A DNA stretch of 58,114 nt from Candidatus Woesearchaeota archaeon (GTDB taxonomy: Archaea; Nanobdellota; Nanobdellia; Pacearchaeales; GW2011-AR1). The position numbers and the translations under genes are program-made. Of this stretch, positions 2,172 to 14,286 are shown piece after piece (position 1 is the first letter of the stretch; the number at the start of each line of letters is the position of its first letter). Location: positions 1 through 58,114 of the forward strand of contig CAYYME010000001.1 of NCBI GenBank assembly GCA_964473005.1, read 5' to 3'. A model generated the notes under the pieces. It was not told where the DNA came from, did no database searches, and saw nothing but the letters and a program-made list of their open reading frames with translations.

Positions 2172-3122
2172 TCAAATTTTTTTTCCTTTTTTATCTAAGA
2201 GAACCATTTCTTTTGTGCAAAGAATGGGGATTTTTGTATTCTTATTTATTTCAAATGCTTGTCTAAAATCACTTTCCCAAAACCAATCTGAATTATACTT
2301 TTTTAATGCAGCAGACTTAAATTTTATTACAACTTCTAAAGTTTTATTATAATCATCACCTAAATTCAGCATTATTAAGTTCTTATATTTAACATTATTT
2401 TTTTTAAGCCAGGTTTCGGTTATTTTTCTATATTTCTCCAAACGAGAAGTTATTATAGTATCAATTTTATTTATGGGAATCATAAATGGTTTAGCATTCT
2501 GCATCCAATGAATATATTCTTCTTCCATTAAATTTATACCCCATGGACAATCTTCACATAAAACCCCATCCATATCACAGGATAAAGTTGTATATTTTGA
2601 ACCATGAATTATTTGCCATTCAAAAACACAATCTGGTTTTTTGATAAACAAAACATAATCAACTGAATCTTTTCCTGATGTCAAAGAAAAAGGAGATGCT
2701 GTTTTTATTATTAATTTTGGGTCAAATTCCAACAATTTTTCTTTTGCTTTTTTTAATGCAGTTCCTTCCCCAACACTATCATCAACAATTAAAACTTTTT
2801 TTATTATTTTTGGTGTTCTTATTAAAGCATTTTCCCAGAACTCATTTTTTATAAATAAATCTGGGGTTGTCAAGGGTCTGCCAAATTTTGTTGCGATAAT
2901 ATCTGCAACAAATAAACCACTTCTTGGAATTCCAACAATTACATCAAATTCATTCGGAATTATCTTTGCGAGTTTTTTTGTATAAGTTGATGCTTGTTCA
3001 TAACTAACCACACATGAAAAAGTTCTAGGAATTAAGATTTTTCTATGTTTTCTTACAAACTCAAAAAGTTTGGGATATTTCAATAATTGTTTCACTAAAT
3101 ATTGCTTTGTTTTTGTGTTCAT
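2172..3122 (-). CDS. phosphoribosyltransferase-domain / HAD-like phosphatase fusion protein
   Basis: PRTase motifs (VGIPRSGLFVA; KKVLIVDDSVGEGTAL) in the N-half; HAD motif I (CDMDGVLCED) in the C-half. Confidence 0.7.
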   Translation of the reverse strand: MNTKTKQYLVKQLLKYPKLFEFVRKHRKILIPRTFSCVVSYEQASTYTKKLAKIIPNEFDVIVGIPRSGLFVADIIATKFGRPLTTPDLFIKNEFWENALIRTPKIIKKVLIVDDSVGEGTALKKAKEKLLEFDPKLIIKTASPFSLTSGKDSVDYVLFIKKPDCVFEWQIIHGSKYTTLSCDMDGVLCEDCPWGINLMEEEYIHWMQNAKPFMIPINKIDTIITSRLEKYRKITETWLKKNNVKYKNLIMLNLGDDYNKTLEVVIKFKSAALKKYNSDWFWESDFRQAFEINKNTKIPILCTKEMVLLDKKGKKI

Positions 3123-4185: not shown

Positions 4186-4965
4186 TTAAGGGAGATTTGG
4201 TCTTTTGCCCTTATTTAATTTCAGAGCATAATTATAAATTTCAACATCTAAAGCATGATCTTTATAAATTCTTTTTCTTAACTTGTCATCCACTTTAATT
4301 ATCTTTTTACTTAAAGTTACTTTTTCCCATTTGGCATTTTTTATCCCCATGGCATTAAACAGGAAGGGTACATCTTCATCACTATTTTCTATAACCCCCA
4401 CAAACCAGCATAAATCTAAGAGCTTTTTTGCGTTTTCCAATTTCTTGGAATCATTCTTATTATTAAGACCTAAAAGATTAAAAATAATTGTTTGAATGAT
4501 ATAAGTTGCTTTATAGCTTAGTTTTCTGATAAGAGGTAAAAGAAAGTCTGGGACAGGTATTCTGCTGGACCCGCTCCCTTTATACTTTAAATTCAGAAAA
4601 TGCACCATCTCATTTTTTATTTGATTTTTATACCATTGATTAAAAGGGATTAATTTTTTTTCATGTAACATCTTTGCATTATAATGAGAAACAATCCTTT
4701 CAGCTGGATCTCTTAGAAAAATAAAATATCGGGGCGTTCTATTTGGAACTAGTTTATGGATCCCATAATAAGTAGCATGCCCAATGATAAATCTTACTTT
4801 ATTCTTATCAAGTTGCTTTGGTTTCAGATTATATCTTACAAGGGAGGTCGAGAAAATTTGATTATCAGGAACCCTCTTTAATAATGTGTTAAGAATAGTT
4901 CCTCCCCCGGTTCTAGGAGGATGAAGGAAAATCCATAAAGTTTTATTGTCCATGTAATAAAGCAA
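4186..4965 (-). CDS. sulfotransferase-family protein
   Basis: N-terminal FLHPPRTGGGTILNTL (PAPS 5'-phosphosulfate-binding-loop-like), 259 aa, in a glycan-type locus. Confidence 0.55.
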   Translation of the reverse strand: MLYYMDNKTLWIFLHPPRTGGGTILNTLLKRVPDNQIFSTSLVRYNLKPKQLDKNKVRFIIGHATYYGIHKLVPNRTPRYFIFLRDPAERIVSHYNAKMLHEKKLIPFNQWYKNQIKNEMVHFLNLKYKGSGSSRIPVPDFLLPLIRKLSYKATYIIQTIIFNLLGLNNKNDSKKLENAKKLLDLCWFVGVIENSDEDVPFLFNAMGIKNAKWEKVTLSKKIIKVDDKLRKRIYKDHALDVEIYNYALKLNKGKRPNLP

Positions 4966-5140
4966 ATTATCTCCTTTTTAAATTTATCTTATAAAAATCT
5001 AAAATCAAAATAAAAAAGAGATAAAAAGTTAAAAGTTTATAAGGGGGAGTTAAGCTAAGAATATGGGCTGAAGTCCCGTAATCTTTAAAAATTAAGATTA
5101 TTTGCTTTTAAATAGACAAAAATAATCAATATCTTAAAAA

Positions 5141-6211
5141 ATGGTTTATTTTCATGAAGCCGCATTAATAGATAGCTGCGATAATATACACTTCAAGATA
5201 TATAGTAATTCCCACCCTAAGGGATTTATAATAGCAAAACCAAAATATATCCCAAGTGAATTGCTAGAGCTTACTGGCTTAAAAAAGAGATTTATATTTA
5301 GTAAGGCTGTGCATCGTTTTAATTTATTTAATAACAAGGAAATTGTTAAAACAAACTTAAGGGCGATAAAGGAGAAATTTCCTTATTATGTATATGAGTG
5401 CAAAAAACACAACAACTGGTTTTTAGGGGTTCCTGAGGAGAAGATAAAAAAATTTTATGACACAAAAGAGGGGGTGCAGGAATTAATGAAAGTTCCTACA
5501 GAAGATCTTGATAATTATCTAAAATCGGTAAGAAATATGATTGAGATACTTATCAGTGCAGGAGTTCAAAAAGAAAATCTTGGAATAAGCCATTCAACAT
5601 TGCTTGGAAATTATACTCCCGGAAAATCAGATATAGACATTTTAGTATTTGGAATAGACAACGGCTGGAAAGTCATTAAATGTTTAGAGGGATGTAAAAA
5701 TCCCCTCTTAAGCTGGAAATCCGAAGAAGATTGGAGAAAATATTATAAGGAGAGAATTGTATCTAAATTTTTTAGTGAAGAGGAATATGCCGCAAATATG
5801 ATGCGAAAAAAAGATGATGGTTTTATTGAAGGACATGTTTTTTCATTATTTTGTATAGAAAATGAAGATGAAAGATGGTATAACTGGGAAGATGAACACG
5901 AACCATTGGGAACAATAAGCATAAAAGCCAAAGTAAAAAATGCTTATTATTCAATTGTAAGACCTGGTTATTATGAAATAGAAGATCCCATAATCTTAGA
6001 AGGTTATAAGGATGTACCAGTAAAACGTATTGTAACCTGGGCCAGACCATTTAGCCTGCAAGCGAAAGAAGGAGAGTATATAGAAGCCTGTGGGCTTCTT
6101 GAAAAAGTTAAATCAAAAAAAGAAGAATTTTATCAATTAGTCATAGGATATTTTGATACGTACACCACAGATAGGGGGGAAAAAGAATATTTAAAAGCAC
6201 TTATAATTTAA
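5141..6211 (+). CDS. Pol-beta-superfamily nucleotidyltransferase with N-terminal domain of unknown function and C-terminal OB-like domain (copy 1)
   Basis: GNYTPGKSDIDILVFG matches the hG[GS]x9-13Dh[DE]h minimal NTase motif; paralogous over full length to the next ORF. Confidence 0.6.
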   Translation: MVYFHEAALIDSCDNIHFKIYSNSHPKGFIIAKPKYIPSELLELTGLKKRFIFSKAVHRFNLFNNKEIVKTNLRAIKEKFPYYVYECKKHNNWFLGVPEEKIKKFYDTKEGVQELMKVPTEDLDNYLKSVRNMIEILISAGVQKENLGISHSTLLGNYTPGKSDIDILVFGIDNGWKVIKCLEGCKNPLLSWKSEEDWRKYYKERIVSKFFSEEEYAANMMRKKDDGFIEGHVFSLFCIENEDERWYNWEDEHEPLGTISIKAKVKNAYYSIVRPGYYEIEDPIILEGYKDVPVKRIVTWARPFSLQAKEGEYIEACGLLEKVKSKKEEFYQLVIGYFDTYTTDRGEKEYLKALII

Positions 6212-6212
6212 A

Positions 6213-7301
6213 ATGCATTTTTATGAATCTTCGATTATAATGACAAAAGACGGACTCCAATGCCTAGTTTACAGTAATGAACATCCAAATGGGTACATCA
6301 TTGTAAAGCCAAAATATATTCCTACAGATAAAATTTCAAGCGATGCTCTGCCTTACAGATTTATTTTAGGGAAAAAAGTAAATCGATTAGATTTATGGGC
6401 GGATAAGGGGAGTTTGAAAAAATATTTCGATGACTTTGCAAGAGCATATCCCCATTATATCTTTAAAAGTGATGTCCATGATAAAAGTCCATTATTCTTT
6501 GCTGTTCCTGTGGAATATATTGAAAAGGCATACTCCCCGAAAGAAGGATTAAAAGAATTAATGAGCATTCCCAAAACAGAACTTGATGAACATTTAAAGA
6601 CTGTGGTTGAACTTATATCTTTCCTTCTGAAAAGTGGTTTAGAATTAAAAGATTTGGGGGTAACTTATTCAACGATAATGGGATATTATTCTCAAAATAT
6701 GTCTGACATGAATATTGTTGTTTATGGAAAGGAGAAATTTTGGAGATTAATGAAATTTTTAAAAGAAAACAAACATGATAATCTAAGATGGAAAACTTAT
6801 GAAGAATGGGAAAATTTTTATAAAAAAAGAAATAGGTATATAATCCATGATAAAGAAAGGTATATAAAAAATATGCATGAAAAAAAATCAGAGGGGTTTT
6901 TTAACAATACTTTATTTATAATTTTTGGGCTTGAAGAACCGAATGAAACATGGTTTAAATGGGGGGAAGAAAAATACAGAAGGATTGGGGGGGCAAAATT
7001 TAGAGCAACAGTAAAAGAGCACAATAACTCCATAGTAAGACCGGGGTGTTACATAATCAACAATTCAGAATTTGTAGATGGACACGAATCCTGTAGAGAA
7101 TTACAAATAGATAAAATTGTCTTCTACTCAAGGGATTACTGCATGCTTGCATATCCTGGGGAAAAAATTGAAATAAGCGGAATTGTTGAGGAAGTTACAC
7201 CTATCAATGGAGAGAAATATTACCGGATTGTCCTCGGGTATTTTGATTCATATATAAATGGAAATAGAGACGGAGAATATATAAAAATATTACAAAACTA
7301 A
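6213..7301 (+). CDS. Pol-beta-superfamily nucleotidyltransferase paralog (copy 2, DxD changed to DxN)
   Basis: Shares YSN.HP.G.II.KPKYIP, SIVRPG.Y and GYFD.Y blocks with copy 1; NTase motif reads GYYSQNMSDMNIVVYG; 1-nt gap from copy 1. Confidence 0.6.
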   Translation: MHFYESSIIMTKDGLQCLVYSNEHPNGYIIVKPKYIPTDKISSDALPYRFILGKKVNRLDLWADKGSLKKYFDDFARAYPHYIFKSDVHDKSPLFFAVPVEYIEKAYSPKEGLKELMSIPKTELDEHLKTVVELISFLLKSGLELKDLGVTYSTIMGYYSQNMSDMNIVVYGKEKFWRLMKFLKENKHDNLRWKTYEEWENFYKKRNRYIIHDKERYIKNMHEKKSEGFFNNTLFIIFGLEEPNETWFKWGEEKYRRIGGAKFRATVKEHNNSIVRPGCYIINNSEFVDGHESCRELQIDKIVFYSRDYCMLAYPGEKIEISGIVEEVTPINGEKYYRIVLGYFDSYINGNRDGEYIKILQN

Positions 7302-7302
7302 A

Positions 7303-7863
7303 ATGGAGAATTCATGCAATTATTGTTGTGAGGCATTACTTAATATAGGTAGCCAAACTAATTACGGAAGTATTGTTATCTACAAGAGAGGGAATAAGCA
7401 AAACGGATGGTTTGCTACATTATCTCCAAAAACAGGTGGTAATCCTGAAAAAGATTTTACAGTCCAGCTGATGCCCATCCCCCATATCCAGCATATTTCA
7501 GAAATTAGTGATGATAGTGAACTAGCAAAGAATTATGGACTGGCCTTTTCAAAGATAGCAAGTGCAATGAACAAAATAATGAAAGAGGAGGGAAGAGACG
7601 AAGAAAATGAAGAAAGAGTTGTGAGAATCGGAACTTATGGAAAATCAAAGCATCCAACCGAACATTTCCATATCAAACTTTTCCCCTGGACAGGAGCAAT
7701 AGGACAGCCTTATACTGTTGACAGCTCCTTTGGAAGTAAAGAAATTTTCAAAGATGAACAAAGTAAAGAGTATACTAAAATGGAACCTGTTAAAAAGAAG
7801 ATGATTGAAGAAAAAAGATTAAACAGCCTCTCTAATAAATTAATCACATTACTAAAAGATTAA
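7303..7863 (+). CDS. HIT-superfamily-like protein (HxHxK variant), copy 1
   Basis: N-terminal Cys cluster (CNYCC), LMPIPH block and TEHFHIKLFP histidine-triad-like motif; 1-nt gap from the upstream gene. Confidence 0.55.
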   Translation: MENSCNYCCEALLNIGSQTNYGSIVIYKRGNKQNGWFATLSPKTGGNPEKDFTVQLMPIPHIQHISEISDDSELAKNYGLAFSKIASAMNKIMKEEGRDEENEERVVRIGTYGKSKHPTEHFHIKLFPWTGAIGQPYTVDSSFGSKEIFKDEQSKEYTKMEPVKKKMIEEKRLNSLSNKLITLLKD

Positions 7864-7948
7864 AAAGCATATTTATAAGACAGATATACTTTTTGTAGCC
7901 ACTATAAGATAGGAACATTTATAAATATTCAGATTTACCTACTTTGTT

Positions 7949-8554
7949 ATGGCAGACATAATCCTTCCAAGAAAGGGCCTGGTTTCCTTAGATGATTGTA
8001 TATTATGCAGTGAAGGAAAAAAAGAAATAGGTAGTATAGGAAACAAAGCAGCTATTATTTATAAAAGTGGAAGGAATCCTGCAATTGATTGGTTTATAAC
8101 TCTTCAGAGGAGCAATATATCTGATCCAAAAAGAGGATTTACTTTAATGCTTATGCCTATTGGACACTTAACTGCTTTTTCACAGATTCACGGCTCCAGA
8201 GAACTTGCTCAAAATTATGGGCTAACATTTGCTAAAGCGCATTATGGTATGCAGGTAATTAGACTAGAAGAATGGAAGCCAAAATATGGTTCTTTTACAT
8301 TTAGCGCGGTGAACTATGGAAAATGTGCTTCTAATATTAATACACAAGAACACCTTCATGTTAAAGCGTATACATTAGACGGAAATGCCAACCAACCCTC
8401 CCCTAGCGATACAGAATGGATTAAAAAAGAGAATTTAAATGATTCCCATGGAGAGAGATATGTCAAGGCTCTGCCGGTATTAAAAGAGGGATTAGATGAA
8501 GAAAGGTACCACCATCTAGCAAGTAGATTAATTGAAATCTGCAATAATTTTTAA
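7949..8554 (+). CDS. HIT-superfamily-like protein (HxHxK variant), copy 2
   Basis: CILC, LMPIGH, AQNYGLTFAK and QEHLHVKAY align with copy 1 (CNYCC, LMPIPH, AKNYGLAFSK, EHFHIKLF). Confidence 0.55.
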   Translation: MADIILPRKGLVSLDDCILCSEGKKEIGSIGNKAAIIYKSGRNPAIDWFITLQRSNISDPKRGFTLMLMPIGHLTAFSQIHGSRELAQNYGLTFAKAHYGMQVIRLEEWKPKYGSFTFSAVNYGKCASNINTQEHLHVKAYTLDGNANQPSPSDTEWIKKENLNDSHGERYVKALPVLKEGLDEERYHHLASRLIEICNNF

Positions 8555-8605
8555 TTATTCTTTATTAATGGCAGATTTTATAAATTATCTTCCCATATTT
8601 AATTA

Positions 8606-9313
8606 ATGGGCATCTCGAGAGAATATATTGAAGACGATTATAATAAAATAAAAACTGCATTTCAGAAAGAGGACAACTTAAAAGTAGCCTATAATATTGC
8701 AAACCAGATAAAGGAACATGAAGAAGTGTTAAAAGAAGTTTTTGCCTTCCTTATATCTTCTTTTAAGAATAAATTTAGAAATGACAAAAAAACTCCTCTT
8801 GTTTTTCATTCCATCTATCTAACAAGGCTCTTTTATCTATGCGGAGAGAGGGATTTAGACGCGTTATTGACAGCCGCTTTACATGATCTTCTTGAAGATA
8901 CAGAGATTTCTGAAGATATGCTAATTAAAAAAAGATTTATGATTGATAAAAAATATCTAATTGGCTATCTAAAAATTCTTAAAGAGGACAAAACCCTTTC
9001 AAGGGAACCTGATGGAAAAAATTTACCTCCCAGATATGTGGAGCATATAAAAAGACTAATAGGAAGCCCAAGAGAAGTCATTAATACTGAAATAATAGAC
9101 AGGTTTTCTGATTTAATGGACTTAGAGTATATAATGGAGTTACCCAAAGAAGAGAGAAAAATTAGATTAAGATCTAAATTAATCAAGGTAAAAAGTTTTG
9201 TAGAGAATATCACAAGAAACAGAAATGACCTTAATCAGAATTGTTTAGATTTATTTAACTCCAAAGTCAAAGAATTGAAGATAAAGGTAAATGTCCCCCT
9301 AATTATTCCCTAA
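8606..9313 (+). CDS. HD-domain phosphohydrolase of the RelA/SpoT (Mesh1-like) type
   Basis: HSIYLTRLF...GERDLDALLTAALHDLLEDT matches the H...HD..ED pattern of (p)ppGpp-hydrolase-type HD domains. Confidence 0.6.
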   Translation: MGISREYIEDDYNKIKTAFQKEDNLKVAYNIANQIKEHEEVLKEVFAFLISSFKNKFRNDKKTPLVFHSIYLTRLFYLCGERDLDALLTAALHDLLEDTEISEDMLIKKRFMIDKKYLIGYLKILKEDKTLSREPDGKNLPPRYVEHIKRLIGSPREVINTEIIDRFSDLMDLEYIMELPKEERKIRLRSKLIKVKSFVENITRNRNDLNQNCLDLFNSKVKELKIKVNVPLIIP

Positions 9314-9353: not shown

Positions 9354-10733
9354 TCAATCACCAATATCTCCTTTCTTAGAATAATAGAAAAGTCCTGCAA
9401 GATAAATGCCCTGGCTTATAAGAGTTGCAACGCATGCCCCAATTACTGCATAAAAATCTCCGAATTTTAAGAGAGAGGTAATTAAGAAATAGTTTAGAGT
9501 TATATTTATTATTGTAGATGTTATTAATAGTTTTGCAATAATTTTGGGGTTATTTTTTGACATAAAATAGGCTATATAGATTCCTGTAATCGGAATAATC
9601 AAAAGCAAAGCAGAAAGTAACCTCAAAACATTTGTTGAAAGAAGATATTCTTGGCCATATATTATTCGGACTGCGAAACCAGATACAAGCACGGTTAAGC
9701 CAAATAAAATCAGACAAAGCAGGAATACAATCTTTAATGATCTTTTCACTGCTCTTTCCAGGCTTTTTCTTTTCATTCTGCTAAAAATAGGCAATAAAAC
9801 AATACCTCCAAATCCTGCTAAAGATACCAAGGCGCCTATAAGACCGAATGCTGCAGTATAATATCCTATAAACTCTGCTCCTACAAAGCGCCCAAGCATT
9901 ATTTTATCTATATTTCCGAAAAAGACTCCTGAGAGGACAATTATAGATATTGGAATGAGAAAATGATTAACCTCTTTTCTATTTTTCAGAGATAGCCCTG
10001 AGTTGTCTGCTTTTAAGAATAAGGATTTTTTCTTAATGATTATTGACAAGTATAAGCTGGAAAACAAATAAGAAACAGACAACCCTATAATAACATAAAA
10101 AAGAATTATTTCATTAGACAAAGAAATTTTTAATGTATAAATTACTGCTAACGGGACTAAAATCACCCTTGCTATCTGAAAAATAATTTCTTGATAAAAA
10201 ACCCCCCTAAAATAATTTGAAGCCTGTAAAATAGAAGAAAATAGGCTCATTAAATTTATGAACAGTATATAAAACACTCCTGCAACCAAAGCAAGAAATA
10301 ATGGCTTTTGATAATAAACCTCTGAAATAAATCTGGAGGTAATTAATAATAGAAATGCGGATATAAATATCAACACTATTTTTAATTTTCCAAGATATAT
10401 AACATATTCTTTTGCTTTTTTATTATTGTTTTTACCTAAAAATTTGGAAACATAACGAACGAGTGTTGAATTTACACCTAATTCAGAAAATGCACCAAAT
10501 ATTAATATTGTGCTTAAAGCCAGACTATACAAACCAAAAAGCTCGGGCATCAGCAATCTTGCCAGTATAATAGTAAAAATTAAACTACCTATTTTTGCGA
10601 CAATGCTTGTTGAAAATTGATAGAGGCTGTTTTTAATTGCAAGCCCTATATTTCCTGAAAAATCTCTTTTTTTAATTCTTCTAAAAATTTCTTTTATATC
10701 TCCTTTTTCTTCTTTAATCAAACTCTGTTTCAT
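9354..10733 (-). CDS. polysaccharide/oligosaccharide flippase (MOP/Wzx-like) membrane protein
   Basis: 459 aa, many predicted TM helices, N-terminal ...ILARLLMPELFGLYSLALS typical of the polysaccharide-biosynthesis-protein family. Confidence 0.7.
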   Translation of the reverse strand: MKQSLIKEEKGDIKEIFRRIKKRDFSGNIGLAIKNSLYQFSTSIVAKIGSLIFTIILARLLMPELFGLYSLALSTILIFGAFSELGVNSTLVRYVSKFLGKNNNKKAKEYVIYLGKLKIVLIFISAFLLLITSRFISEVYYQKPLFLALVAGVFYILFINLMSLFSSILQASNYFRGVFYQEIIFQIARVILVPLAVIYTLKISLSNEIILFYVIIGLSVSYLFSSLYLSIIIKKKSLFLKADNSGLSLKNRKEVNHFLIPISIIVLSGVFFGNIDKIMLGRFVGAEFIGYYTAAFGLIGALVSLAGFGGIVLLPIFSRMKRKSLERAVKRSLKIVFLLCLILFGLTVLVSGFAVRIIYGQEYLLSTNVLRLLSALLLIIPITGIYIAYFMSKNNPKIIAKLLITSTIINITLNYFLITSLLKFGDFYAVIGACVATLISQGIYLAGLFYYSKKGDIGD

Positions 10734-13270: not shown

Positions 13271-13279
13271 CTTAAAAGA

Positions 13280-13367
13280 TGCGCGGATCGGGATTCGAAC
13301 CCGAGTCATCTGCTATCCTCAGATAATATGATGGAGGGCAGAGGTTCTACCACTGAACTATCCACGC
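13280..13367 (-). tRNA. intron-containing tRNA, probably Gly(UCC) after splicing at a bulge-helix-bulge motif
   Basis: Cloverleaf by hand: acceptor GCGTGGA/TCCGCGC+A, D GTTC/GAAC, anticodon stem TCTGC/GCAGA, variable TGAC, T TCGGG-TTCGAAT-CCCGA. A 17-nt intron is flanked by 4-bp helix CCTC/GAGG and 3-nt bulges CAT and ATA. Confidence 0.6.
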
Positions 13368-13409
13368 ACATAATAATATGCAAAAAACTATTTAATAAAG
13401 TTTACTAAA

Positions 13410-13990: not shown

Positions 13991-14033
13991 GACTGATAGC
14001 AACCTTTAAATAGAGGTTTTATTTTCAAAAATA

Positions 14034-14145
14034 GAGACGGCCATAGTAATTGGGTAATACCCGGTCCCATTCCGAACCCGGAAGTCAAGTCAATTACGCC
14101 GTATGCGGTAGTGGCCGACAAGCTGCGAAGCGTTGGTGCTGTCTC
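14034..14145 (+). rRNA. rrf: 5S rRNA (not linked to 16S/23S in this window)
   Basis: Conserved CCCGGTCCCATTCCGAACCCGGAAGTCAAG core; terminal helix GAGACGGC/GCTGTCTC; ends approximate. Confidence 0.85.
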
Positions 14146-14286
14146 AACTTTCTTTGATAATTTTAAGCATCATAAGACTTAAACCCAAACATATATTCCA
14201 CTTTCATAATCTTTTTTAGAATTGGTAAACCCATAAATAAAAATTACTTCTTTCATAATCAAATTTGTTAAAAGAACTAATTAAAA

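Follow-up and report, generated by a model that had tools for sequence, protein, structure and literature searches.

Gene order and fusions link a nucleotide-chemistry cassette of DPANN archaea to PAPS metabolism

The window analyzed here, a 58,114-nt stretch of contig CAYYME010000001.1 of a Candidatus Woesearchaeota archaeon, contains a cassette of five same-strand ORFs flanked by two genes on the opposite strand:

NT1 (ORF1), 5141-6211, forward strand: Pol-beta-type nucleotidyltransferase of 356 aa, predicted to be catalytic
NT2 (ORF2), 6213-7301, forward strand: full-length NT1 paralog of 362 aa with a degenerate active site, S-D-M-N
HIT1 (ORF3), 7303-7863, forward strand: histidine-triad-fold protein of the Zn type (CxxC), 186 aa
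HIT2 (ORF4), 7949-8554, forward strand: divergent HIT1 paralog, 201 aa
HD (ORF5), 8606-9313, forward strand: RSH (Mesh1/SpoT)-type HD phosphohydrolase, 235 aa
Context gene, 4186-4965, reverse strand: PAPS-type sulfotransferase (Pfam Sulfotransfer_2), divergent from the cassette
Context gene, 9354-10733, reverse strand: Wzx-type polysaccharide flippase (Pfam Polysacc_synt), convergent with the cassette

The ORF listing confirms the layout given by a first-pass annotation made from the sequence, with gaps of 1, 1, 85 and 51 nt from ORF1 to ORF5. The two tandem pairs of paralogs proposed there are also seen in pairwise comparisons: NT1 and NT2 are 35% identical over 360 aa (E = 2e-82), and HIT1 and HIT2 are 34% identical (E = 3e-31). 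The motifs quoted for the NT, HIT and HD proteins were all found, most being invariant among orthologs, and the domain assignments hold (a Pol-beta nucleotidyltransferase with an OB fold, a HIT-like protein with lysine for the third histidine, and an RSH/Mesh1-type HD protein).

NT1 comprises an N-terminal beta domain (residues ~1-60), a nucleotidyltransferase core (~66-240) and a C-terminal OB fold (~250-356); the core residues are G148, S152, S163-D164-x-D166 and E240, the latter being the probable third carboxylate. The motifs YxNxHP...KPKYIP, S-D-x-D, RPGxY and GYxD are kept across orthologs. The nucleotidyltransferase motif had been assigned to both ORFs, but judging from the alignments it is complete in ORF1 only. 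Since SDxD is kept in 55 of 55 NT1 orthologs, whereas 52 of 54 NT2 orthologs have SDxN (D166 of NT1 replaced by N), NT2 probably acts as a partner without catalytic activity of its own. It also lacks H151, N157, T159, G161 and K162, the loop residues conserved in NT1. The AlphaFold model of NT1 is confident (pLDDT 92.7), and in Foldseek searches its residues ~250-356 match the OB folds of RPA, SSB and the LysRS N-terminus (prob 0.93-0.99), bearing out the suggested OB-like C-terminus, while the core matches class-I CCA-adding enzymes and CD-NTases at low probability. The Pfam match of NT1 to NTP_transf_2 is weak (E = 0.0086; 16.9 bits, under the 21-bit cutoff).

In the HIT alignment, C5/C8, H61, YGK and E120-H121-x-H123-x-K125 are invariant, with lysine at the third histidine-triad position in 31 of 31 aligned members; H123 is presumed to be the nucleotidyl-accepting histidine. 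The best nine Foldseek PDB matches of the HIT1 model (pLDDT 90.9) all belong to the HIT superfamily, among them 2oik (prob 1.0), ecHinT, the GalT-type 6k5z and DcpS. HIT2, which keeps CxxC, H and EHLHVK and lacks the SPKTGG and GQPYTVD loops, is found in a minority of loci only; in L001, L020, L027 and L029 its gene runs on the opposite strand. With known superfamily members, both hydrolases (Hint, Fhit) and transferases (GalT, Apa1/2, APS:phosphate adenylyltransferase), the cassette proteins share the fold, the N-terminal Zn-type site of CxxC plus His and the H-x-H core, for which a His-NMP intermediate is presumed. Unlike these, they have lysine at the third position rather than histidine (hydrolases) or glutamine (GalT branch), do not match Pfam HIT, GalT or DcpS (none of 231 DPANN HIT1 homologs has a Pfam match), carry a C-terminal extension of ~60 aa and are often fused to the degenerate nucleotidyltransferase.

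Conserved residues of the HD protein (R58, H68, H93-D94, E97-D98 and D165-R166) retain the R...H...HD..ED...D(R) pattern of Mesh1/SpoT-type small alarmone hydrolases (Pfam HD_4). The window protein matches HD_4 with E = 0.007, under the Pfam cutoff, and the best 17 PDB matches of the family profile are all RSH-type hydrolases (Mesh1, 3nqw, E = 8e-5). However, overall similarity to Mesh1/SpoT is very low, and the cassette has no RelA/SpoT-type synthetase partner.

The locus sample consisted of 65 GTDB loci and further metagenomic loci, and the NT1-NT2 pair is carried by about 70 DPANN loci. Among the 52 complete loci, those with 3 kb or more of downstream sequence, NT is present in 52, HIT in 48, a phosphatase (PHP, HD or IMPase) in 51, an AlkP-family PDE in 30, an APS kinase in 21 (~40%) and one or more sulfur-related genes in 32. 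PHP, HD and CysQ/IMPase-type phosphatases are mutually exclusive in one slot: PHP was found in 43 loci and HD in 10, both together in none, and ~80% of loci have a PHP or IMPase-type phosphatase in place of HD. The best NCBIfam family for PHP is 3',5'-nucleoside bisphosphate phosphatase (E = 3.5e-58), with a score of 197 bits that lies below the equivalog cutoff of 400 and is nearly equaled by RNase RNM. The IMPase and PHP families include sugar and histidinol phosphatases as well. The linked APS kinase clears the apsK equivalog-domain cutoff (TIGR00455; 176 vs 138.7 bits). Fusions comprise NT2-HIT (seven loci), PDE-NT1 (four), PDE-HD-NT1 (three), HD-NT1 (one) and PHP-APS kinase (two), HD being fused to NT1 in L024, L027, L029 and L030, and in L014 the slot is occupied by an IMPase/CysQ-type phosphatase fused to APS kinase. 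Reciprocally, all five loci with a DPANN-type APS kinase, found independently in metagenomes, have NT adjoining.

The linkage is not due to chance, because about 70 independent loci repeat it and some of the genes are fused; the cassette is a variant of a module conserved in DPANN archaea that consists of NT1, NT2, HIT and a single 3'-phosphatase-type enzyme. Neither the NT nor the HIT family has a passing match in Pfam, NCBIfam, PADLOC or PDB families. Two observations set beforehand as counting against an undescribed, functionally linked nucleotide-chemistry module, namely placement of these proteins in characterized families and absence of the linkage from relatives, were both not made, and this part of the first-pass annotation is sustained.

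In essentially every locus the cassette lies in a glycan biosynthesis island, and its surroundings include APS kinase, sulfotransferases, sulfatase-family proteins and glycan genes, SAM methyltransferases being the commonest extra neighbors. The window flippase matches Polysacc_synt with E = 1.6e-27, and 28 of 69 loci have a member of that family within 10 kb. The window sulfotransferase exceeds the 22-bit Pfam cutoff (39 bits; E = 1.3e-9) and contains PRTGGGT and RDPAERIVSHY, which we take to be 5'-PSB-like and 3'-PB-like motifs, respectively. A Sulfotransfer_2-family gene also abuts the cassette in L014, L036 and L045, and further sulfotransferases are among the unclustered neighbor genes. 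Neither Sat nor CysDN was found in or near any cassette locus, and a regular expression for the canonical ATP sulfurylase motif, positive in five non-DPANN APS kinase loci, had no match in 1.14 Mb of cassette loci. APS kinase is absent from the 58-kb window and from within 10 kb of all ten HD-type loci, and is mostly missing near PDE-type loci.

Gene order and fusions thus connect the cassette with PAPS synthesis and recycling, so that it probably helps decorate cell-surface sugars and is unlikely to serve signaling. A nucleotide-activated surface-glycan pathway, previously listed as the alternative, comes closer to these data and looks more precisely like a PAPS-type donor cycle. We tentatively favor such an activated-donor cycle for glycan decoration, at somewhat less than an even chance, the decoration most likely being sulfate. 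Such a cycle would form a nucleoside 5'-phospho-X anhydride, add a 3'-phosphate, spend the donor in a transferase reaction and recycle the resulting 3',5'-bisphosphate. NT1, with NT2 as a scaffold, would use NTP to load an acceptor X, an oxyanion or a hydroxyl, with NMP (probably AMP) and release PPi; HIT, often tethered to NT2, would take or pass on the same NMP-X via a covalent His-NMP intermediate, in a transfer, exchange or proofreading role. The 3'-phosphate would be added by the APS kinase that is operon-encoded in many relatives, though not in the window, and the donor would be spent by the neighboring sulfotransferase, in the window likely the 4186-4965 product. HD is predicted to be a 3'-phosphatase acting on the pAp-type nucleotide that is set free; elsewhere this task would fall to PHP or CysQ-type enzymes, to which the genomic role of HD appears equivalent. 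The known families of pAp phosphatases are CysQ, DHH and PHP (PMC8268124), and the activities of HIT proteins toward APS comprise hydrolysis, phosphorolysis and ammonolytic transfer (PMC4613722).

The canonical cycle runs from Sat or CysDN through the APS kinase CysC and a sulfotransferase to a CysQ, NrnA or PHP pAp phosphatase. The cassette loci resemble it in the TIGR00455-passing APS kinase of many sister operons, in the adjoining PAPS-type sulfotransferases, the window included, in the PHP and CysQ/IMPase-type enzymes of the HD slot, and in that the step missing from them, ATP sulfurylase, is a nucleotidyl transfer. They differ in the lack of Sat/CysDN, in the window also of APS kinase, and in PDE-type AlkP enzymes, which play no part in the canonical pathway. 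To our knowledge, no link of the NT1/NT2 or HIT families to sulfate has been described, and HD-type phosphatases are not among the known pAp phosphatases, RSH-type enzymes being known for the removal of 3'-pyrophosphate or 2'-phosphate. Also counted against a PAPS-type cycle are the use of two enzymes (NT and HIT) for one adenylyl-X step, the APS kinase missing near HD-type loci, the sub-cutoff PHP score and the nucleic-acid binders as best OB matches. The boldest reading, with NT1/NT2 as a new kind of ATP sulfurylase, is rather unlikely. According to two MAG surveys (PMC8091004, PMC7844129), sat genes are common in DPANN and Woesearchaeota, so these genomes may possess a canonical APS route.

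A close parallel is the Campylobacter jejuni O-methyl-phosphoramidate pathway. Its enzyme Cj1415 is an APS kinase homolog. Cj1415-Cj1418 make CDP-phosphoramidate 3'-phosphate (PMC11800397, PMC6429109), a PAPS-like 3'-phospho-NDP-X donor, by a nucleotidyltransferase and a 3'-kinase in a glycan/capsule locus with methyltransferases nearby. In contrast to the cassette, its nucleotidyltransferase is of the NTP_transferase type rather than Pol-beta, and neither a HIT protein nor a dedicated phosphatase is described for it; homologs of its glutamine kinase and amidohydrolase were not seen at cassette loci. GlnD and bacterial CCA-adding enzymes likewise combine a Pol-beta-type nucleotidyltransferase and a phosphohydrolase on one polypeptide, as in some cassette loci, and distant NT relatives adjoin CitG in cofactor clusters, as in the CitG/CitX (MdcB/MdcG) pair, NT being perhaps comparable to CitX. 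However, NT is not a sequence member of these families, and its domain order and partners (OB, HIT, AlkP) differ.

It is rather unlikely that NT1/NT2 instead form an NDP-X donor of the CDP-glycerol or CDP-ribitol type from NTP and X-phosphate for teichoic-like decoration, HIT exchanging the nucleotidyl group as in GalT, with APS kinase and sulfotransferase as mere co-resident glycan-modification genes. Transfer of phospho-X onto the glycan would fall to the PDE, which flanks the cassette in its 30 loci and is fused to NT1 in seven, or to a CDP-OH_P_transf-like membrane protein (c10) encoded 3' of the operon in 16-17 loci. Abundant NTP_transferase, epimerase and dehydrogenase genes, the 6k5z match and the CitG neighbors, whose clusters need a phosphodiester to a hydroxy-acid, agree with this; however, the window has neither PDE nor c10, and the near-obligatory 3'-phosphatase-type enzyme, its fusions both to NT1 and to APS kinase, and the constant NT neighborhood of the DPANN-type APS kinase are left unexplained.

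The first-pass annotation had preferred a nucleotide-derived signal or alarmone-like module. In such a second-messenger system, akin to RelA/SpoT, GlnD or CBASS-like ones, NT1/NT2 would make a modified-nucleotide or oligonucleotide signal, and HD, together with HIT, would degrade it. The RSH/Mesh1 type of HD, the HD-NT1 fusions, whose hydrolase-then-transferase order is that of long RSH proteins and GlnD-like make-and-break enzymes, and the weak CD-NTase matches fit it, but the usual occupants of the HD slot, the constant biosynthetic context with APS kinase fusions, the lack of PADLOC matches, the absence of sensor, effector or receptor domains from about 70 neighborhoods, and an NT motif of the NMP-transferase rather than the RelA/SpoT synthetase type make it very unlikely. 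Equally improbable is healing and tailing of RNA or tRNA 3'/5' ends (HD/PHP/AlkP clearing 3'- or 2',3'-cyclic phosphates, NT1/NT2 adding nucleotides, HIT removing 5'-adenylates like aprataxin), which accords with the RPA, SSB and LysRS anticodon-binding domains as best OB matches, the archaeal CCA-adding enzyme as best nucleotidyltransferase match, RNase RNM as second-best PHP family, aprataxin among the HIT1 fold matches and a ProRS-like paralog replacing HIT in four loci, but not with the glycan islands, the operonic or phosphatase-fused APS kinase and adjoining sulfotransferases, the lack of a ligase, kinase (Pnkp), Hen1 or RtcB partner at the loci, and the weakness of the nucleic-acid enzyme matches (E > 0.04, TM about 0.15).

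In summary, the PAPS-type reading, drawn from gene context and fusions, has a little under an even chance of being right; its chemistry is conjectural, and it is not pre-empted by anything known, because no curated family matches NT or HIT. The five genes are a version of an archaeal enzyme set that is undescribed although widely conserved.

ORF calling bore out the compact arrangement described in the first-pass annotation: five ORFs on the same strand, separated by gaps of 1, 1, 85 and 51 nt, constitute the cassette. Together with the two adjoining genes they are located as follows:

4186-4965, minus strand: Sulfotransfer_2-family gene (Pfam, 39 bits vs. the 22-bit cutoff), divergent from the cassette
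5141-6211, plus strand: NT1, nucleotidyltransferase of the Pol-beta type, ORF of 356 aa
6213-7301, plus strand: NT2, paralog of NT1, ORF of 362 aa
7303-7863, plus strand: HIT1, HIT-like protein, ORF of 186 aa
7949-8554, plus strand: HIT2, paralog of HIT1, ORF of 201 aa
8606-9313, plus strand: HD, hydrolase of the Mesh1/SpoT type, ORF of 235 aa
9354-10733, minus strand: Wzx-type flippase, convergent with the cassette

The proposed duplications were upheld as well, NT1 and NT2 being full-length paralogs (35% identity, E 2e-82) and HIT1 and HIT2 being paralogous too (34% identity, E 3e-31). The gene at 4186-4965 qualifies by Pfam as a PAPS-dependent sulfotransferase, and both PAPS-binding motifs are present. 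Further upstream genes encode a SAM methyltransferase, a PRTase fusion and an NTP_transferase, while SecD/SecF lie downstream. The window starts at a contig end, has a GC content of about 33% and contains ribosomal protein genes and DUF655, which, with the taxonomy of all homologs, mark the source as a DPANN archaeon of the Woesearchaeota/Nanoarchaeota type.

Several other features of the window were recorded. TATA-like A/T boxes at 5105-5118 (TTTTAAATA), 7917-7928 (TTTATAAATA) and 8576-8587 (TTTTATAAAT), each some 20-30 nt before the ATG of its gene (NT1, HIT2 and HD, respectively) and uncorrected for the AT-rich background, suggest three putative short-leader transcription units (NT1-NT2-HIT1; HIT2; HD). 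The minus-strand gene at 2172-3122 encodes a 316-aa protein with an N-terminal phosphoribosyltransferase domain (Pfam Pribosyltran, E 8e-12) and a DxDGxL HAD-like motif in the C-terminal part; its adjacency to the cassette is not kept in other loci. The plus-strand ORF at 12-554 (180 aa) has no Pfam match, and two copies of it flank the sulfotransferase-NT-NT-HIT-IMPase/APSK operon of another cassette locus, L014. An 88-91-nt tRNA at 13278-13368 (minus strand), confirmed by Rfam and given no definite anticodon by ARAGORN ('(tc)'), probably has an intron or an unusual anticodon loop, and is clustered with tRNA-Arg(CCT) and tRNA-Leu(AAG). A stand-alone 5S rRNA gene (67 bits) lies at 14033-14147 (plus strand); neither a 16S nor a 23S gene was found anywhere in the 58-kb window.

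The Pol-beta superfamily is recognized by the motif hG[GS]-x9-13-D-h-[DE]-h with both carboxylates. NT1 has it as G148-x3-S152...S163-D164-I-D166, invariant in 55/55 orthologs, and NT2 does not, 52 of its 54 orthologs having S-D-x-N. The comparison of these 109 orthologs also identified NT1-specific loop residues that are lost in NT2. Because of both changes, NT2 is probably an anciently fixed, non-catalytic partner of NT1. Against Pfam NTP_transf_2, NT1 scored 16.9 bits, under the 21-bit cutoff, with a match spanning G..S..SDID; distant NT relatives reached 18.6-19.9 bits, also under the cutoff, and NT2 had no match to this family. The AlphaFold model of NT1, built from 39 homologs (pLDDT 92.7), runs from an N-terminal beta domain through an alpha/beta core to a C-terminal beta barrel. 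In Foldseek searches the barrel resembled OB folds (RPA, SSB and the LysRS N-domain, prob 0.93-0.99), and the core weakly resembled the A. fulgidus CCA-adding enzyme (prob 0.25-0.41) and the CD-NTase LpCdnE (prob 0.11-0.13), in both cases over ~150-200 columns only; no full-length structural analog was found. The top-ranked matches, to MCM, were discarded (prob <= 0.15, rmsd about 20 Å). TiaS-like and RelA/SpoT-synthetase-like readings of NT1 were dropped as well, since neither had a fold match and the motif is a classical GS...DxD.

The AlphaFold model of HIT1 (pLDDT 90.9) has the alpha+beta fold of HIT proteins: its top nine PDB matches in Foldseek all belong to the HIT superfamily, with weak E-values (1e-3 or above). 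The best of them is 2oik (prob 1.0, TM 0.47/0.59), and others are E. coli HinT (ecHinT), DcpS and the GalT-type uridylyltransferase 6k5z (match 8, prob 0.98). Invariant in the family are C5, C8, H61, YGK and E-H-x-H-x-K. The Lys noticed earlier at the third place of the histidine triad is found in 31/31 aligned sequences, so that HIT1 and HIT2 depart from the H-phi-H-phi-H-phi-phi triad, and the family is a HIT of the Zn type whose third triad residue is Lys. The GalT/Apa branch is characterized by H-x-H-x-Q, tandem-duplicated HIT half-barrels and a Cys/His metal site; HIT1 shares CxxC and His with this branch, but has Lys instead of Gln and a single HIT domain, and the likeness is one of mechanism class only. 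HIT enzymes acting on APS include hydrolases, phosphorylases and ammonia adenylyltransferases (PMC4613722).

We found 231 homologs of HIT1 and 211 close homologs of NT1, the latter all from DPANN. None of NT1, NT2, HIT1 and HIT2 had a match above threshold in Pfam, NCBIfam, PADLOC or PHROGs, HIT1 and HIT2 had no HIT-family match in Pfam or NCBIfam, and searches of PDB with NT and HIT retrieved nothing, either by single sequence or by family profile. Literature searches on COG1665, on methanopterin/CitG nucleotidyltransferases and on DPANN sulfotransferase/APS kinase turned up no description of the NT or HIT families. The failure of NT and HIT to match in these searches agrees with the original impression that the cassette is not a described system.

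The HD protein has the residues of RSH-type hydrolases, H68, H93-D94, E97-D98 and D165 being invariant in 23 sequences; R58 and R166, the latter within D165-R166, are further invariants of this tight DPANN family, which has 54 matches. It scored 16.5 bits vs. Pfam HD_4 (cutoff 27.2), and six homologs carry a precomputed PF13328 match. The top 17 PDB matches of the family profile are all RSH-type hydrolases (Mesh1, Rel and (p)ppApp hydrolase; best E 7.7e-5).

We compared the neighborhoods of the cassette in 65 GTDB loci and several metagenomic loci, calling and clustering all ORFs and re-scoring presence by tblastn; the counts refer to 52 loci whose downstream sequence extends for 3 kb or more. 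The NT pair was present in 52/52 loci, HIT in 48 and a phosphatase-type gene in 51 (PHP in 39, HD in nine, IMPase-type in four). PDE genes, encoding AlkP-family 'Phosphodiest' proteins, were found in 30 loci, mostly in two copies, a small RHH-like gene in 25, APS kinase within 10 kb in 21, and sulfatase-family genes in 10. Three architectures were distinguished: RHH-PDE-NT1-NT2-HIT-PHP-PDE(reverse); NT1-NT2-HIT-PHP-APS kinase-(PHP)-CDP-alcohol-phosphotransferase-like membrane protein; and sulfotransferase/NT1-NT2-HIT-(HIT2)-HD, the type of the window, which is common to loci L036 and L045 and is seen, minus the sulfotransferase, in L009. A glycan biosynthesis context is seen in all cassette loci, whose flanks contain epimerases, glycosyltransferases, flippases, NTP_transferases and methyltransferases. 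Among 150 otherwise unclustered neighbor ORFs from ~50 loci, SAM methyltransferases were by far the commonest Pfam match (17, plus five of the FkbM type), and sulfotransferases, GT1 and FemAB-like proteins were found four times each.

Single-ORF fusions were of six kinds: NT2+HIT (seven loci), PDE+NT1 (four loci), HD+NT1 (one locus), PHP+APS kinase (two loci), IMPase/CysQ-type+APS kinase (L014 and, by tblastn, L037), which brings the loci with APS kinase fused to PHP or IMPase to four, and PDE+HD+NT1 (three loci, 1087-1105 aa, the HD segment being 52% identical to the HD of the window):

L024, 7760-11077: PDE+HD+NT1 triple-fusion ORF
L027, 7808-11071: PDE+HD+NT1 triple-fusion ORF
L029, 7814-11077: PDE+HD+NT1 triple-fusion ORF

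Given about 70 loci and six kinds of fusion, chance adjacency can be rejected, and the suspected functional linkage of these genes holds. The fusions link HD with NT1, HIT with NT2 and the phosphatase slot with APS kinase, and they suggest that the cassette proteins form a physical complex; the triple-fusion ORFs suggest a single multifunctional polypeptide or complex.

Some loci deviate from these arrangements. A 436-aa ProRS-like paralog directly follows the NT gene(s) in L043 (12189-13499), L047, L063 and L066, in place of HIT or NT2+HIT; it combines a class II core with the C-terminal domain of ProRS, has no anticodon-domain match and does not reach the proS cutoff, and here a presumably adenylate-forming enzyme sits in the slot of a presumably adenylate-using one. 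In APS kinase-type operons of L010 (8608-9999), L007, L011 and L012, the gene directly upstream of NT1 encodes a 463-aa winged-helix and pyruvate-kinase-like protein whose scores stay under the equivalog cutoffs for pyruvate kinase. PDE-NT-NT-HD, with 42% identity to NT1, is also found on a contig that bears the label 'Patescibacteria group bacterium' (L064, JAGXBC010000002.1); either a DPANN contig was mis-binned or the genes were transferred into a CPR bacterium.

PHP and HD are mutually exclusive, with 43 vs. 10 loci and none containing both, and IMPase-type genes occupy the same slot in L014 and L037; because of this exclusion we infer that the HD of the window is equivalent to the PHP and IMPase-type enzymes. 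Three unrelated folds in one position are the pattern expected of non-orthologous displacement of a single function. The best NCBIfam match of PHP is 3',5'-nucleoside bisphosphate phosphatase NF041577 (E 3.5e-58, 197 bits, equivalog cutoff 400), followed by RNase RNM. Mesh1/SpoT chemistry is 3'-(pyro)phosphate hydrolysis. The function of the slot would thus be 3'-phosphate removal from a 3',5'-bisphosphate nucleotide, since this activity is shared by two of the folds and is chemically near that of Mesh1/SpoT. Known phosphatases of pAp, the 3',5'-bisphosphate by-product of PAPS, are CysQ/IMPase, DHH and PHP enzymes (PMC8268124).

The cassette-linked APS kinase scored above the NCBIfam apsK equivalog-domain cutoff (TIGR00455, 176 vs. 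138.7 bits). A metagenome scan seeded with such kinases yielded five DPANN-type loci with sufficient flank, in all five of which NT adjoins the kinase gene, and sulfotransferase families occur in several sister loci. The 58-kb window is without an APS kinase gene, as are the 10-kb surroundings of every HD-type locus, and PDE pairs and APS kinase tend toward mutual exclusion. A regular expression search with QTRNPxHRxH and GRDHAG, which we take to be ATP sulfurylase motifs, identified no canonical ATP sulfurylase motif in the window or in 1.14 Mb of cassette loci, and found Sat in five non-DPANN, unrelated APS kinase loci. The argument from a missing enzyme is nevertheless unproven, because two MAG surveys report sat genes to be common in DPANN and Woesearchaeota (PMC8091004, PMC7844129).

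The findings themselves are the identities of the domains, the degeneration of NT2, the conservation of the linkage, the occurrence of fusions, phosphatases that exclude one another, and an association with APS kinase and sulfotransferases; as their best explanation we tentatively propose a PAPS-type activated-donor cycle. NT1, held by NT2, would move an AMP (or other NMP) group from NTP onto an acceptor X with release of PPi; HIT, bound or fused to NT2, would pass on the same NMP-X via a His123-NMP intermediate; APS kinase would 3'-phosphorylate the NMP-X product; a sulfotransferase-fold or AlkP-type transferase would transfer X to a glycan; and HD, PHP or the CysQ-type enzyme would convert the released 3',5'-bisphosphate to NMP. 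A fused PDE might, speculatively, clear PPi or nucleotide by-products. The simplest X would be sulfate, in which case NT1/NT2, with or without HIT, would replace ATP sulfurylase. This logic of making, 3'-phosphorylating, using and recycling a nucleotide-linked group donor is known both from the PAPS cycle and from the CDP-phosphoramidate 3'-phosphate pathway of C. jejuni (PMC11800397), whereas the NT1/NT2 pair and the HxHxK HIT are undescribed, and no recycling slot occupied by a Mesh1-type HD has been described either. Several points count against the proposed cycle: APS kinase is missing from the window and from the vicinity of HD-type loci, PDE pairs and APS kinase tend to exclude each other, sat genes are reported to be common in these archaea, the cycle gives no account of why both an NTase and a HIT are needed, and the OB fold of NT1 resembles nucleic-acid binders. 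A bolder version, which we consider rather unlikely, is that NT1/NT2 represent a third type of sulfate adenylyltransferase feeding the co-operonic APS kinase of DPANN archaea and the Mesh1-type HD a fourth pAp phosphatase family; such a new ATP sulfurylase would be a Pol-beta-fold heteromer with one degenerate subunit, often tethered to the His-x-His-x-Lys HIT.

The PDE and CDP-alcohol-transferase-like genes would find a place in a pathway for an NDP-alcohol or phospho-X donor, an alternative to which we assign a small chance, as it leaves over the near-obligatory 3'-phosphatase and its fusions. Displacement of HD by PHP and IMPase-type enzymes, the biosynthetic context and the absence of sensors and effectors make a signaling or alarmone-like module, the reading preferred in the first-pass annotation, improbable despite its agreement with the RSH-type HD and the HD-NT1 fusion. 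Equally doubtful is RNA-end repair, a reading that accommodates the OB fold, the CCA-enzyme-like core and the resemblance of PHP to RNase RNM, but not the glycan and APS kinase context. A defense system (CBASS and similar) was rejected, since PADLOC had no matches for any of the five cassette proteins and the context is wrong.

In a full HMMER scan of 1.84 billion representatives, 905 relatives of NT were recovered. Apart from the DPANN NT1 and NT2, these include a large family of distant, full-length proteins (about 340 aa) from Thermoproteales, Vulcanisaeta and Methanococcus. The Vulcanisaeta relative (L072, 8001-9089) has a RimK-type ATP-grasp gene on one side and CitG on the other, in a cluster with formylmethanofuran dehydrogenase (Fmd)/FTR/MCH/MfnB/Fae/MptE-like genes; another relative (P0345, L077, 5626-7143) is fused to HPPK and adjoins a flavoprotein and a pterin-binding DUF4346 protein; and one in Thermofilum (L076, 2674-3699) is near CdhCD. 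This suggests that NT-family enzymes in general transfer a (pseudo)nucleotidyl group onto the hydroxyl or oxyanion of a small molecule during the synthesis of cofactors or donors, which is consistent with the PAPS-type cycle and no proof of it. The distant family is possibly a missing enzyme of methanopterin/methanofuran biosynthesis, for which CitG might be the partner by analogy with CitX.

Independently of the cassette, the NT relatives beside CitG and HPPK in methanopterin/methanofuran clusters are thus a candidate for an unassigned step of C1-cofactor biosynthesis. To our knowledge, just two types of enzyme account for sulfate activation at present; if the bolder version were true, this step would gain a new enzyme fold, and the 'sulfur cycling' calls made automatically for DPANN genomes would have to be revised. 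If the PAPS-type cycle holds, the HD-type enzyme would join the short list of pAp phosphatases, and a biochemical role could be assigned to two unannotated protein families, which comprise several hundred cluster representatives, in building and modifying the cell surface of ultra-small, host-dependent archaea, for which this surface is the interface with the host.
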